Positions 1-7,202 of a stretch of 7,202 nucleotides of DNA are shown here, piece after piece. A program made the translations under genes and the position numbers. The notes under the pieces are model-generated. The model made no database searches, was not told the origin of the DNA, and saw only the letters and a program-made list of their open reading frames with translations. The stretch is taken from IMG/VR virus record IMGVR_UViG_2706794691_000013. One strand, given 5' to 3'. The number at the start of each line of letters is the position of its first letter. The stretch's first letter is position 1. The DNA comes from a virus (Duplodnaviria > Heunggongvirae > Uroviricota > Caudoviricetes).

Positions 1-1
1 C

Positions 2-127
2 TCATGCCACGATCTAATCGACGGGCGGGTAAAAACCAGCGATTACACCAAAGAAGAATTGCGCCTGATGCATGCTGAAGGGGTTTTTCGCACACAAGAA
101 ATCTGGAGAAAGAAAGGTCATTTATGA
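2..127 (+). CDS. 3' end of an upstream gene (hypothetical protein, C-terminal 41 codons); start lies outside the window
   Basis: Frame 2 is open from the window edge to TGA at 125-127 (...DGRVKTSDYTKEELRLMHAEGVFRTQEIWRKKGHL*). Its stop overlaps the ATG at 124 as ATGA, a typical coupled junction. Function not recognised. Confidence 0.35.
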   Translation, partial: SCHDLIDGRVKTSDYTKEELRLMHAEGVFRTQEIWRKKGHL

Positions 128-598
128 TTTACCCAACGAATACAGGAAAAAGCGGAGAACACCTTCGCCTCACCACGCTGGAAAGTGTCTGGATTCAGGG
201 AAAACTACGTATGTGGGGGCGCTGGTCGTATATTGGCGGTGGCAGGTCAGAGAATGAAAAAAGCGGGAATAGAGAAAGCTGAGCTGGAAGCGTTTTTGCG
301 AGAGATGATCAACGGCAAGCAAAAGAGCTGGCTGGCGCATTGTACTGATGCAGAGGCGTTATGTATTGATCGAGTCATAAGTGAGGTGCTGGCAGAGCAT
401 CCAGGATTGATTTGCATTCTCCGGCAACGCTATGAAGGGCGGGGGATGACTAAGCGCAAAATGGCTGAATTGCTAAATGATGCACACCCAGAGTGGTGTT
501 TTAGCACATGCGAAAAACGGATTGCTAATTGGTTAGCTGTTGCTGAGTATGCCCTATATATTCCCATGCGTGAATCATTTGCTGAGAAAATGGCTTGA
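124..598 (+). pseudogene. Late antiterminator Q homolog (Phage_antitermQ-like), reading frame interrupted; the intact C-terminal ORF is 185/254..598
   Basis: ATG 124 with SD GGAG (104-107) opens a 52-codon frame-1 ORF (124..282) containing IQGKLRMWGRW, which resembles the N-terminal IQxxLxRWGxW motif of E. coli QuuD-type Q proteins (recalled from memory). Frame 2 (185..598) carries the conserved core CTDAEALCIDRV...RQRYEGRGMTKRKMAELL...EKRIANWLAVAEYAL. Both frames are open across 128-280; an A6 run at 257-262 is a plausible indel site. Position upstream of the lysis genes fits Q. Confidence 0.55.
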
Positions 599-678
599 TT
601 TCTTACGTATAAACTGCTTCAATTTTGCTATGCTTCGCAAAGCTGTATCGCGAGGCGGATTGCAGACATGGACATCGT

Positions 679-705
679 AAAAAAACCGCTTAATGCGGTT
701 TTTTT
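679..705 (+). terminator. Intrinsic (rho-independent) terminator, potentially bidirectional
   Basis: AAAAAAACCGC-TTAAT-GCGGTTTTTTT: stem AACCGC/GCGGTT (684-689 / 695-700), 5-nt loop, A-run upstream and 7-T run downstream; about 80 nt past the Q stop. Confidence 0.55.
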
Positions 706-1023
706 ACGTCAGGAAAGCAGGGGAGAATGCTGCTAGTTGGGCAACTGGTCTTTCTGCTCCAAATTATAACAGAGACCAGTTATAGTTTCGGTGCTGTGTT
801 TTTTTTACAATATTGTGATAACACATTGCTGGCGGGAGTTTTGATATTTCTTGGCAGGGGCTGATGATGCGTTATCCTGATGTCGTCAACTCATATAAAA
901 TGAGATGAGAGATCATTGCAGGGTGGTTTGTAATTCGCTGTTTAGCGGGACAATATGTTGTCTGATACAAGACACCCGACGCCTCAGATTACTATAATAA
1001 AGACGAAGCATCCTTTGTATTGA

Positions 1024-2880: not shown

Positions 2881-3096
2881 ATGAAATCCATGGACAAAAT
2901 TTCAACAGGCATTGCCTACGGCACCTCCGCAGGCAGTGCTGGCTACTGGTTTTTACNNNNNNNNNNNNNNNNNNNNNNNNNNNNNNNNNNNNNNNNNNNN
3001 NNNNNNNNNNNNNNNNNNNNNNNNNNNNNNNNNNNNNNNNNNNNNNNNNNNNNNNNNNNNNNNNNNNNNNNNNNNNNNNNNNNNNNNNNNNNNNNN
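2881..3096 (+). CDS. Class II holin (phage 21 S-type pinholin) with dual-start motif; interior and 3' end masked, end estimated from the 71-aa family length
   Basis: SD GGAGG (2869-2873), 7 nt before ATG 2881. N-terminus [25 protein letters not shown] matches the phage 21 S21 / E. coli EssD-type holin N-terminus (recalled), with Met1 and Met4 as the antiholin/holin starts. Lies immediately upstream of a SAR endolysin. Confidence 0.65.
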
Positions 3097-3282
3097 NNNN
3101 NNNNNNNNNNNNNNNNNNNNNNNNNNNNNNNNNNNNNNNNNNNNNNNNNNNNNNNNNNNNNNNNNNNNNNNNNNNNNNNNNNNNNNNNNNNNNNNNNNNN
3201 NNNNNNAAACTAATACCAATAATCTTTCTGCTACAGCGATGGTTATTGGAGAGCTGGGGAAGAGAGCACCGAAGGAAATATG

Positions 3283-3780
3283 ATGCAGTCATCATTACGC
3301 AAAGCTGTCACAGCTGCTATTGGTGGCGGGGCTATTGCCATAGCGTCTATGCTCATCACTGGCCCAAGTGGTAACGATGGTCTGGAAGGTGTCAGTTACA
3401 TACCATACAAAGATATTGTTGGTGTATGGACTGTATGTCACGGGCATACAGGAAAAGACATCATGCTCGGTAAAACGTATACCAAAGCAGAATGCAAAAC
3501 ACTCTTGAATAAAGACCTTGCCACTGTCGCCAGACAAATTAACCCGTACATCAAAGTCGATATACCGGAAACAACGCGCGGCGCTCTTTACTCGTTCGTT
3601 TACAACGTGGGTGCTGGTAATTTCAGAACATCGACGCTTCTTCGCAAAATAAACCAGGGCGATATCAAAGGCGCATGTGATCAGCTACGTCGCTGGACAT
3701 ATGCTGGCGGTAAGCAATGGAAAGGTCTCATGACTCGTCGTGAGATTGAGCGTGAAATCTGTTTGTGGGGTCAGCAATGA
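3283..3780 (+). CDS. SAR (signal-arrest-release) endolysin, phage 21 R-type lysozyme (GH24)
   Basis: Complete ORF. G/A-rich weakly hydrophobic N-terminal SAR helix ([23 protein letters not shown]); E-8x-D-5x-T catalytic spacing (LEG..KD..WT) falls at E35/D44/T50 if translation starts at ATG 3283 (the adjacent ATG 3280 is an alternative); near-identical to phage 21 R as recalled. Stop TGA 3778-3780 overlaps the Rz ATG. Confidence 0.9.
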
Positions 3781-4241
3781 ACAGAGTAACCGCGATTATC
3801 TCCGCTCTGGTTATCTGCATCATCGTCTGCCTGTCATGGGCTGTTAATCATTACCGTGATAACGCCATTACCTACAAAGCCCAGCGCGACAAAAATGCCA
3901 GAGAACTGAAGCTGGCGAACGCGGCAATTACTGACATGCAGATGCGTCAGCGTGATGTTGCTGCGCTCGATGCAAAATACACGAAGGAGTTAGCTGATGC
4001 GAAAGCTGAAAATGATGCTCTGCGTGATGATGTTGCCGCTGGTCGTCGTCGGTTGCACATCAAAGCAGTCTGTCAGTCAGTGCGTGAAGCCACCACCGCC
4101 TCCGGCGTGGATAATGCAGCCTCCCCCCGACTGGCAGACACCGCTGAACGGGATTATTTCACCCTCCGGGAACGACTGGTAATGATGCAGGCCCAACTTG
4201 AAGGTGCTCAGCAATACATAACCGAGCAGTGTTTAAAGTAA
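3777..4241 (+). CDS. Rz: i-spanin Rz (inner-membrane spanin subunit)
   Basis: ATG 3777 overlaps the endolysin stop (ATGA). N-terminal TM helix ([20 protein letters not shown]) followed by a periplasmic coiled-coil-like region rich in A/E/R/D/K; stop TAA 4239-4241. Confidence 0.85.
3997..4182 (+). CDS. Rz1: o-spanin Rz1 (outer-membrane lipoprotein), embedded in the +1 frame of Rz
   Basis: SD AAGGAG (3984-3989), 7 nt before ATG 3997. 61 aa with lipobox LVVVG|C and a proline-rich mature region ([16 protein letters not shown]); fully nested within Rz in a different frame. Confidence 0.85.
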
Positions 4242-4439
4242 NNNNNNNNNNNNNNNNNNNNNNNNNNNNNNNNNNNNNNNNNNNNNNNNNNNNNNNNNNN
4301 NNNNNNNNNNNNNNNNNNNNNNNNNNNNNNNNNNNNNNNNNNNNNNNNNNNNNNNNNNNNNNNNNNNNNNNNNNNNNNNNNNNNNNNNNNNNNNNNNNNN
4401 NNNNNNNNNNNNNNNNNNNNNNNNNNNNNNNNNNNNNNN

Positions 4440-5897
4440 NNNNNNNNNNNNNNNNNNNNNNNNNNNNNNNNNNNNNNNNNNNNNNNNNNNNNNNAANNNN
4501 NNNNNNNNNNNNNNNNNNNNNNNNNNNNNNNNNNNNNNNNNNNNNNNNNNNNNNNNNNNNNNNNNNNNNNNNNNNNNNNNNNNNNNNNNNNNNNNNNNNN
4601 NNNNNNNNNNNNNNNNNNNNNNNNNNNNNNNNNNNNNNNNNNNNNNNNNNNNNNNNNNNNNNNNNNNNNNNNNNNNNNNNNNNNNNNNNNNNNNNNNNNN
4701 NNNNNNNNNNNNNNNNNNNNNNNNNNNNNNNNNNNNNNNNNNNNNNNNNNNNNNNNNNNNNNNNNNNNNNNNNNNNGTNNNNNNNNNNNNNNNNNNNNNN
4801 NNNNNNNNNNNNNNNNNNNNNNNNNNNNNNNNNNNNNNNNNNNNNNNNNNNNNNNNNNNNNNNNNNNNNNNNNNNNNNNNNNNNNNNNNNNNNNNNNNNN
4901 NNNNNNNNNNNNNNNNNNNNNNNNNNNNNNNNNNNNNNNNNNNNNNNNNNNNNNNNNNNNNNNNNNNNNNNNNNNNNNNNNNNNNNNNNNNNNNNNNNNN
5001 NNNNNNNNNNNNNNNNNNNNNNNNNNNNNNNNNNNNNNNNNNNNTTATAGACTTGCAGGAATGCCTTTGTTTGATGCTATTTGTCACGGGATTTCCACAG
5101 TTTCGCTTGGTGGTTTCTCAACTCATAGCGAGAGTATCGGATATTTTAATAACTATTTGGTTGAGCTGGTGGCTGGTTCTTTTTCCCTGCTATCGGCTTT
5201 CAACTTCACTCTTTGGTATATTGTTATTAGCAGAAAAACGATAAAACCTTTAATCAGAGATATTGAACTTCGTTTCTTTCTGTTAATAGCCTTAGGGGTG
5301 ATCATTGTTACCTCTTTCCAGGTCTGGCATATAGGTATGTATGACTTGCATGGAAGTTTTATTCATTCGTTTTTTCTTGCCAGCTCCATGCTCACTGATA
5401 ATGGTTTAGCTACGCAGGATTATGCAAACTGGCCCACGCACACGATAGTGTTTTTGCTGTTGTCAAGTTTCTTTGGGGGATGTATAGGTTCAACCTGTGG
5501 TGGAATTAAGTCACTTCGATTTCTTATACTTTTCAAACAAAGCAAACACGAGATAAATCAGCTTTCTCATCCCAGAGCGTTGTTGAGTGTAAATGTAGGA
5601 GGGAAGATAGTTACAGATCGTGTAATGAGGTCTGTATGGAGTTTCTTTTTTCTTTATACTCTCTTCACGGTGTTTTTTATACTGGTGTTAAATGGTATGG
5701 GATATGATTTTCTTACATCATTTGCAACAGTGGCTGCATGTATTAATAATATGGGATTAGGTTTTGGGGCTACTGCATCGTCATTCGGAGTGCTTAATGA
5801 CATTGCAAAATATTTAATGTGCATAGCTATGATTCTTGGTCGCCTTGAAATTTATCCTGTTATTATATTGTTTTCAGGTTTTTTTTGGCGCTCCTAA
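4440..5897 (+). CDS. trkG: Trk-system K+ uptake protein TrkG (TrkH family); N-terminal part lies in an N-mask and the start is estimated from the ~485-aa TrkG length
   Basis: Frame open from the mask edge (5046) to TAA 5895-5897; the visible 284 aa (YRLAGMPLFDAICHGISTVSLGGFSTHSESIGYF...GGIKSLRFLILFKQ...LEIYPVIILFSGFFWRS) show TrkH-family motifs and match the Rac prophage TrkG C-terminal half as recalled. Confidence 0.8.
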   Translation, partial: XXXXXXXXXXXXXXXXXXXXXXXXXXXXXXXXXXXXXXXXXXXXXXXXXXXXXXXXXXXXXXXXXXXXXXXXXXXXXXXXXXXXXXXXXXXXXXXXXXXXXXXXXXXXXXXXXXXXXXXXXXXXXXXXXXXXXXXXXXXXXXXXXXXXXXXXXXXXXXXXXXXXXXXXXXXXXXXXXXXXXXXXXXXXXXXXXXXXXXXXXXYRLAGMPLFDAICHGISTVSLGGFSTHSESIGYFNNYLVELVAGSFSLLSAFNFTLWYIVISRKTIKPLIRDIELRFFLLIALGVIIVTSFQVWHIGMYDLHGSFIHSFFLASSMLTDNGLATQDYANWPTHTIVFLLLSSFFGGCIGSTCGGIKSLRFLILFKQSKHEINQLSHPRALLSVNVGGKIVTDRVMRSVWSFFFLYTLFTVFFILVLNGMGYDFLTSFATVAACINNMGLGFGATASSFGVLNDIAKYLMCIAMILGRLEIYPVIILFSGFFWRS

Positions 5898-6034
5898 TAT
5901 ATGGCTGATTTATAATTGTGAGTTTAATATTATGTTGACTCACTCATTGATCCAATACCTAACTTTACCAGCAACACCTCCGCCCCCAGTAGCACTGGCT
6001 GCTGGGGTGCGTTTTATTCATAAAGCAAGGCTGT

Positions 6035-6823
6035 ATGAGCGAGAAATTAAAGATAGTCTATCGCCCATTACAAGAATTGTCACCGTATGCGCACAACGCC
6101 AGGACGCACAGTACTGAGCAGGTGGCACAACTGGTAGAAAGTATTAAGCAATTCGGCTGGACTAATCCGGTGCTGATTGACGAAAAGGGCGAAATTATTG
6201 CGGGTCACGGTCGTGTTATGGCGGCTGAAATGCTCAAAATGGATTCTGTTCCGGTCATTGTTCTGTCTGGCCTGACGGATGAGCAGAAAAAGGCGTACCG
6301 CCTGGCAGATAATCGCCTGCCGATGAATGCTGGCTGGGATGAAGATCTGTTGCGGATGGAGCTGTCGGACCTAATCAATGCTGATTTTGATGTCTCCCTG
6401 ACAGGCTTCATCCCGGCAGAAATTGATGAACTGTTGACGGATGTTTTGCCCGGTACAGGAAATGAGGAGGAGCCGTATACGACGAAAATTGATACGCCTG
6501 TTTATGAGCCGTCAGGCGGTAAACCGGATATCAGTGAACTGTACGACGATACGAAAACTCAGGAGCTGATCAGCCGGATACGTTCGGCGTCCCTTGATCC
6601 TGATATTGAGAAATTCCTCCTGTGTGCAGCAGAACGTCACACGGTGTTTAATTTCAGCAGAATTGCGGACTATTACGCTCATGCCCCCGCTGAAATTCAG
6701 TGCCTTTTCGAGGAGTCGGCGCTGGTGATCATTGATTATCAGCAGGCTATTGAAAATGGATTTGTCCGAATGACGCAGCGCATGGTGGAGATCATGCATG
6801 GCGGGGAGGAGGAATATGCGTGA
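6035..6823 (+). CDS. ynaK: ParB-like nuclease domain (ParB/Srx fold) protein, full-length YnaK-like
   Basis: Complete 262-aa ORF. N-terminal ParB-N-like domain with the GHGR motif (IIAGHGRVMAA) and an acidic C-terminal half; N-terminus matches E. coli K-12 Rac YnaK as recalled (that copy is truncated); sits directly downstream of trkG, as in Rac. Confidence 0.8.
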   Translation: MSEKLKIVYRPLQELSPYAHNARTHSTEQVAQLVESIKQFGWTNPVLIDEKGEIIAGHGRVMAAEMLKMDSVPVIVLSGLTDEQKKAYRLADNRLPMNAGWDEDLLRMELSDLINADFDVSLTGFIPAEIDELLTDVLPGTGNEEEPYTTKIDTPVYEPSGGKPDISELYDDTKTQELISRIRSASLDPDIEKFLLCAAERHTVFNFSRIADYYAHAPAEIQCLFEESALVIIDYQQAIENGFVRMTQRMVEIMHGGEEEYA

Positions 6824-7202
6824 TGATTTTTGCGCCTTTATTCTGACTCACGGGCGACCGGACAAAGTTCTGACTTACCGGACGTTGCGTCGTGCTGGCT
6901 ATACCGGGAAAATTTTTATCGTTGTTGATGATGAAGATAAGACACGGCATCAGTACATGGCTGAATTTGGTGAACAGGTGCTGGTATTTTCCAAAGCCGA
7001 TATTGCTAGTCGTTTTGACGAAGCCGATAATTTTAGTGACCGCCGCTCAATTTTTTACGCCCGTAATGCCTGTTTCGACCAGGCAAAACTGGTCGGGTGT
7101 AAATACTTCATTCAGCTCGATGATGATTATCACGAGTTCCAGTTTCGGGTGGATCGCAACTATGACCAGGCCTATTTCCCGATAAGGAAACTGGATGAGA
7201 TC
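6816..7202 (+). CDS. Hypothetical protein with GT-A-like glycosyltransferase motifs (partial, continues beyond the window); possibly YdaY-like
   Basis: ATG 6816 with SD GGGGAGGAGGA (6802-6812) overlaps the ParB-like stop by 8 nt (ATGCGTGA). The frame is open to the window end: MRDDFCAFILTHGRPDKVLTYRTLRRAGYTGKIFIVVDDEDKTRHQYMAEFGEQVLVF...KYFIQLDDDYHEFQF. The beta-alpha-beta start with VVDDED and the later acidic LDDDY (DxD-like) motif resemble GT2/GT-A enzymes. Motif-level inference only. Confidence 0.55.
   Translation, partial: MRDDFCAFILTHGRPDKVLTYRTLRRAGYTGKIFIVVDDEDKTRHQYMAEFGEQVLVFSKADIASRFDEADNFSDRRSIFYARNACFDQAKLVGCKYFIQLDDDYHEFQFRVDRNYDQAYFPIRKLDEI

Follow-up and report, generated by a model that had tools for sequence, protein, structure and literature searches.

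A DUF1133 gene, distantly related to the phage 21 Q antiterminator, is split by a 68-bp gap in a Shigella sonnei prophage contig

DUF1133 proteins and the phage 21 Q antiterminator

Q21, the antiterminator of phage 21, belongs to the Q21/Q933W family, which corresponds to Pfam PF06530 (Phage_antitermQ) (10.1101/651190, Yin, Kaelber and Ebright). The Q cassette runs from the gene itself through the PR' promoter, the Q-binding element (QBE), a sigma-dependent pause element (SDPE) and a terminator to the late genes, and in the protein H2 and the linkers on either side of it (H1-H2 and H2-H3) make up a torus that reaches into the RNA-exit channel of RNA polymerase (10.1101/651190). The DNA analysed here, a stretch of 7,202 nucleotides referred to as a whole as the window, carries at positions 124-598 a split gene whose intact counterpart in E. 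coli SE11 is 543 nt long, encodes 180 aa and is annotated as a DUF1133 family protein (WP_000640161.1).

The intact SE11 protein covers positions 1-175 of the DUF1133 profile (PF06576) at 356 bits and matches PHROG 753, 'anti-termination protein Q-like', at E 2e-79; an NCBIfam search gave no model for the protein. DUF1133 differs from Q21 in being a separate Pfam family, the SE11 protein scoring only at the cut-off of PF06530 (26.1 bits vs 26), with an O157-type homologue at 33.2. When the single sequence was searched against the PDB, Q21 was the top match at E 0.27, which is suggestive at most. A profile of 30 homologues matched the Q21 chains 6p18_P and 6jnx_P at E 2.4e-5, and this match is collinear in two stretches, residues 14-39 with Q21 6-31 and residues 95-178 with Q21 57-152. 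An AlphaFold model was also built from 30 close homologues and used as a Foldseek query; PDB ranks 1-10 were all Q21, with a probability of 1.00 and TM scores of 0.50-0.58 on the target, the model itself having a pLDDT of 60 overall and below 50 for residues 1-55, and being confident only in its C-terminal half. Because the model is poor in the N-terminal half, it was not used to map the segment deleted from the window onto the Q21 torus.

Q21 (PF06530; PDB 6P18, 6JNX) and DUF1133 are alike in their genomic position, in an N-terminal helix with the motif W-x-x-G-x-L-x-x-WG-x-W and in a C-terminal region that is collinear with the sigma-R4-like part of Q21. They differ in that DUF1133 has ~30 extra residues between H1 and the CxDD motif. 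It is clear from profile and fold that the DUF1133 protein is a distant homologue of the phage 21 Q antiterminator, and the Q-like label attached to the locus in the original prediction is upheld at the superfamily level by the Pfam, PHROG, profile and Foldseek results. By analogy with Q21, DUF1133 proteins would be expected to have antiterminator activity; a full-text literature search for DUF1133 and PF06576 found no papers.

In the window, and in four other prophage contexts, the Q-like gene lies between the nin region and the late/lysis genes. It follows DUF1367 and YbcO/DUF1364 in the lineage of the window, and DUF968 and RusA in O157-type prophages; in all contexts seen, tRNAs or cargo genes come next, and holin and lysin after them. 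Downstream of the gene the window again resembles the Q21 cassette (10.1101/651190), with a non-coding block, a terminator and late genes. The block that follows the stop codon directly (599-665, + strand; 65 nt) has kept its sequence better across divergent prophages than has the 3' end of the gene, and it contains TGCTTC twice (615-620 and 631-636) together with a small palindrome, GCTTCGCAAAGC. On the analogy with the Q21 cassette, the block is a candidate late promoter and Q-loading site. A sigma-70 consensus scan found no canonical promoter in 599-665, and assignments of -35/-10 elements, a QBE and an SDPE made by eye in the conserved block were dropped as unsupported. The block is followed at 676-708 (+ strand) by a strong intrinsic terminator, a candidate tR'-type element for the antiterminator to override, in which a 14-bp stem closes a loop of 5 nt and leads into a U-run; the consensus scan missed this terminator and folding confirmed it (-19.7 kcal/mol, z -6.55), and its stem is kept through base changes in other prophages.

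Two further features lie between the Q-like gene and the holin. The first is a stretch in SE11 (8414-8600 of locus L001), between the Q-like gene and two TolA-like ORFs, which matches the Rfam sRNA STnc100 (RF02076) with 86.6 bits vs a cut-off of 47; the equivalent stretch of the window, ~1346-1532, is under the first of its runs of N. The second is the pair of ORFs itself, at 1643-2071 and 2222-~2617 in the window, which give matches to the TolA C-terminal domain (PF06519) and occupy a cargo gene (moron) position; one of them is annotated 'cell envelope integrity protein TolA' in SE11.

The two reading frames and the missing segment

The locus had originally been read as one gene split between two frames, and translation of the window confirmed this reading in all its coordinates. 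The 3' end of a ybcO/DUF1364-like nin-region gene, annotated as a DUF1364 domain-containing protein in SE11 and as PF07102 (YbcO) in relatives, occupies 1-127 (+ strand, frame 2, stop TGA 125-127), and the ATG at 124 overlaps its stop codon as ATGA. From this ATG, frame 1 runs to TGA 280-282 (124-282, + strand) and reads MIYPTNTGKSGEHLRLTTLESVWIQGKLRMWGRWSYIGGGRSENEKSGNRES; the product of 52 aa, deposited as CSG27240.1, consists of the 42 native residues M1-S42 followed by 10 out-of-frame residues, ENEKSGNRES. Frame 2 is free of stops from 128 to TGA 596-598. Within it is a 114-aa ORF (254-598, + strand), deposited as CSG27242.1, whose ATG at 254 is the codon for Met67 of the intact protein and which includes the part aligned to the Q21 sigma-R4-like region.

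Each piece was compared with the Pfam profiles. The N-terminal remnant matches positions 1-44 of PF06576 (88.8 bits, E 3.7e-25) and the C-terminal remainder positions 64-175 (204.2 bits, E 1.3e-60), where the cut-off is 23.1; against PF06530 the frame-2 fragment alone scores 23.8, below the cut-off of 26, and an artificial fusion 32.3. Judged from these sequence matches, both pieces are homologous to one family, DUF1133, and a chance match is excluded. Neither frame covers profile positions 45-63, so the two halves do not adjoin in the protein. The window has no single ORF of ~174-184 aa running over PF06576 positions 1-175; what it holds is a disrupted copy and not an intact member of the family.

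Window positions 1-760 were compared by megablast with 5,426 complete E. coli genomes, of which 1,169 cover at least 80% of the query; in the best matches, the 760-nt query is spread over 828 nt of subject in two pieces. When the SE11 gene is aligned with the window, one gap of 68 nt is the sole difference within the gene, and a script comparison gave the same result exactly: window 124-598 is the SE11 gene minus nt 128-195. The missing 68 bases are GGAATATGTTCAATCAGTTGTTGGCATCCAAAAAACTGACGAAAACAGCCATTAATGAAGCCCTGCGC, that is GGAATATG...CCCTGCGC. The junction lies at 250|251 (+ strand) and reads GGTCAG|AGAATG in the window (22-mer GCAGGTCAGAGAATGAAAAAAG), where the intact allele carries GGAATATGTTC...CCCTGCGC. 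The loss amounts to 22 codons plus 2 nt, the residues removed being G43-R65, GNMFNQLLASKKLTKTAINEALR; as 68 is not divisible by three, a ribosome starting at ATG 124 reads native codons only as far as Ser42 and then runs out of frame to TGA 280-282. As far as the alignments go, the two-frame pattern is caused by a clean 68-bp deletion and not by a 1-nt slip in the A-run. The junction is blunt and without microhomology, the only adjacent repeat being an imperfect one, GGAAT after the left breakpoint and AGAAT after the right. Replication slippage between the GAAT repeats was considered as the mechanism and rejected; it predicts a G at window 251, and an A is observed.

In 30 homologues (174-184 aa, 74-92% identity) the residues M1-G43 are nearly invariant, and so are the deleted residues G43-R65. 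The homologue clusters listed, 120 of 906 found, are all of 150-184 aa, nearly all of 174-184 aa, and all are single-frame. The deleted residues appear to fall between the H1-like helix and the CxDD/H3 region and would, by collinearity alone, be the equivalent of the torus.

Alternative readings and the standing of the deletion

The original prediction attributed the split to a single 1-nt event at the A6 run, 257-262 (+ strand), either an inserted base or a homopolymer sequencing error that separates two adjacent halves. Both frames are indeed open across 128-280 and the run does lie in their overlap. However, the run has the same length in intact genes (AGAATGAAAAAAGCGGG in the window and the intact alleles alike, in the identical context AGAATGAAAAAAGCG), the sole difference from the intact gene is the 68-nt gap at 250|251, and profile positions 45-63 are missing from both frames; this reading has next to no probability. 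Removal of one A does not rescue the protein either, as had been proposed, because the 157-aa product is still without the 23 conserved residues G43-R65. The same absence of nearly invariant residues from the fused product counts against programmed +1 ribosomal frameshifting or transcriptional slippage at GAA-AAA-AGC as a route to a functional 157-aa protein. An A-run in the overlap and a required shift of +1 would suit such recoding, but the split arrangement is a singleton that none of the listed homologue clusters shares, and the relatives whose flanks are identical to those of the window have a plain intact gene, so that a recoding signal would have had too little time to evolve in it. Programmed frameshifting, which had been named as the less likely alternative from the start, is rejected as wholly improbable. 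It is equally hard to credit that the gene is naturally short and already complete in 254-598 (or 185-598), with the N-terminal WGRW match a coincidence. Several assemblies do annotate the 114-aa ORF as a protein, but where upstream DNA is present the upstream part of the gene is broken by another lesion (+1 T, +1 A or an IS1 end), the other four contigs with the ORF beginning at or within a few bases of it. Furthermore, the N-terminal 44 residues match the DUF1133 profile at the E value given above, and homologues, which on the short-gene reading should lack the frame-1 N-terminus, carry it nearly unchanged.

In the collections searched, the deletion junction is confined to one deposit. The junction sequence was not found in the 5,426 complete E. 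coli genomes, in GTDB representative genomes, in IMG/VR viral contigs, in GenBank phages or in JGI metagenome contigs. An exact look-up of the 52-aa junction peptide among ~15 billion proteins gave one contig only, CWUL01000188.1 of the Shigella sonnei assembly GCA_001261395.1, in which CSG27240.1 is named 'putative bacteriophage protein' and of which the window is the whole; a 137-aa GTG-start version was absent from the same ~15 billion proteins. The ParB-like protein of the contig, looked up in the same exact manner, gave ten contexts. Nine of these retain this part of the prophage, each with the 180-aa DUF1133 gene intact; the tenth lacks the gene and has different phage genes upstream. 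Two of the nine, CWZM01000012.1 and CP022457.1, have zero mismatches to the window over 251-1283, 1534-2609, 2866-2956 and 5045-7202. With a singleton junction and near-identical relatives that are intact, the deletion is either very recent and private, or not real.

An inactivating mutation or a sequencing/assembly error is still the right pair of causes; the original prediction had named the first and, for the second, a homopolymer sequencing error, but A6 is unchanged and the homopolymer is not the site. The second of these would now be an assembly or scaffolding artefact of a short-read draft, with the isolate itself carrying the intact 180-aa gene. The contig does have six runs of N of 250-280 nt in 7.2 kb (1284-1533, 2610-2865, 2957-3206, 4242-4494, 4497-4776 and 4779-5044), two pairs of which are only 2 nt apart, with islands of 2 nt and 91 nt between some of them, and the same runs are present in the public contig. 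The deposited gene calls respect these runs, TrkH being called as 276 aa from just after a run, and the holin and the second TolA-like gene being uncalled; the runs thus look like scaffold gaps, are most likely gaps in the deposit, and mark poor local assembly. A sister assembly of the same accession style (CWZM01000012.1) also has a 250-N run, where the other loci have none such and one of them has one single N. Gap lengths differ from those of relatives by 12 nt (256 vs 244) and 61 nt (803 vs 742), and the lysozyme region differs by 17-25 bases from otherwise identical relatives, which fits the collapse of paralogous prophage copies. The junction is, moreover, a singleton in every collection searched, and its peptide comes only from the NCBI deposit, with no Logan assembly source. 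On the other hand, when an assembler creates a deletion it normally does so between direct repeats that match or exceed the k-mer or merge overlap in length; the blunt junction here has nothing but an imperfect 5-nt repeat next to it, too short to mislead an assembler or gap closer. No other errors are seen in the flanks, which match the two relatives named above without a mismatch, and private small deletions are common in the prophage genes of Shigella. An artefact is considered unlikely, though by no means negligible, and on balance the deletion is probably real. The allele, found in one S. sonnei draft assembly, is either ordinary prophage gene decay or an assembly error.

The Rac-type prophage and the proposed consequence of the lesion

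The window has close counterparts in the Rac-type prophages. In that of SE11, whose allele is also found in ~1,000 other E. coli genomes, the DNA of the gene is identical to the window apart from the 68-bp gap, because of which the copy in the window loses its frame after codon 42. Both have the same neighbours: DUF1367, YbcO/DUF1364, two TolA-like ORFs, holin, lysozyme, Rz/Rz1, trkG and the ParB-like gene. In comparison with Rac of E. coli K-12 (the rzpR-rzoR-trkG-ynaK region), the window is 98-99% identical over the Rz remnant and trkG-ynaK, a match that identifies the window as the late region of a Rac-type prophage. The whole nin/Q-like/holin/lysozyme block, kept in the window, is gone from K-12 Rac, where a larger deletion has brought ydaW up against the rzpR pseudogene. 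At 4242-6823, with the lysis cassette on one side and the terminase genes on the other, the window has trkG and a full-length ParB-like gene of 262 aa. K-12 Rac retains trkG, but its ynaK is only 87 aa long; of the two, the window is the less decayed Rac-type late region.

The lysis cassette of the window shows some divergence of its own. Positions 3207-3289 have no match in relatives, the 17-25 mismatches across 3290-4241 (lysozyme-Rz) lie apparently for the most part before ~3713, with CWZM01000012.1 identical over 3714-4241, and the distance from the holin start to the lysozyme start is 402 nt in the window vs 215 nt in relatives. Either the lysis cassette is a mosaic at 3207-3713, or paralogous prophage copies have been assembled there into a chimera.

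The 114-aa ORF recurs among the ~15 billion proteins, behind different lesions. One E. coli assembly (locus L002, ~2995) has an extra T before AATGAAAAAAG, giving GCAG-T-AATG and a +1 frameshift, and an NCTC long-read E. coli assembly (locus L003, ~2970) has an extra A in GACGAAAAC, A4 becoming A5. In three others an IS1 end abuts the gene, before GTTGTTGGC at gene nt 144 in L008 (1-30) and before AATGAAGCC at gene nt 181 in L005 (1-98) and L007 (1-29); both IS1 positions are inside the segment deleted in the window, and the identity of the element was confirmed by matches annotated as IS1A/IS1B transposase. The junction of the window is absent from all of these. They may be independent disruptions, perhaps by neutral decay, or sequencing errors.

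The full explanation put forward here is that a prophage DUF1133 gene, a distant relative of Q21, has lost 68 bp (nt 128-195) in this assembly; we give it a probability of about 0.62. The shift of frame after Ser42 and the loss of the nearly invariant residues G43-R65 would leave no functional antiterminator, and the allele, as recorded, would be null; translation of the 114-aa C-terminal ORF from ATG 254 may or may not occur. If the Q21 paradigm applies, transcripts started in the conserved block would, for lack of the antiterminator, be expected to end at 676-708, leaving the TolA-like, holin, lysozyme and Rz/Rz1 genes silent.

A broader idea was also considered. The Q-like gene is broken separately by the 68-bp deletion, by two +1 frameshifts, by IS1 at at least two positions and by the K-12 loss, and from this it could be supposed that selection has recurrently silenced the lysis cassettes of Rac-type prophages with cargo (trkG) kept; the 114-aa fragment, which has the DNA-binding part and is without the torus region, would perhaps be dominant-negative at the Q-loading site. 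This idea is regarded as improbable.

Under the explanation favoured here, CSG27240.1 (52 aa) and CSG27242.1 (114 aa) are best annotated together as one DUF1133/Q-like antiterminator pseudogene, and the locus shows that a two-frame split can lie beside a homopolymer without being caused by it. Should the deletion be real, the late/lysis genes of the Rac-type remnant in one S. sonnei isolate would be without a dedicated antiterminator, which is the normal fate of Shigella prophage genes and would have little significance beyond annotation. For the family, the link between DUF1133 and Q21 by profile and fold, together with the conserved downstream cassette, supports the renaming of this DUF as a Q21-like antiterminator family.
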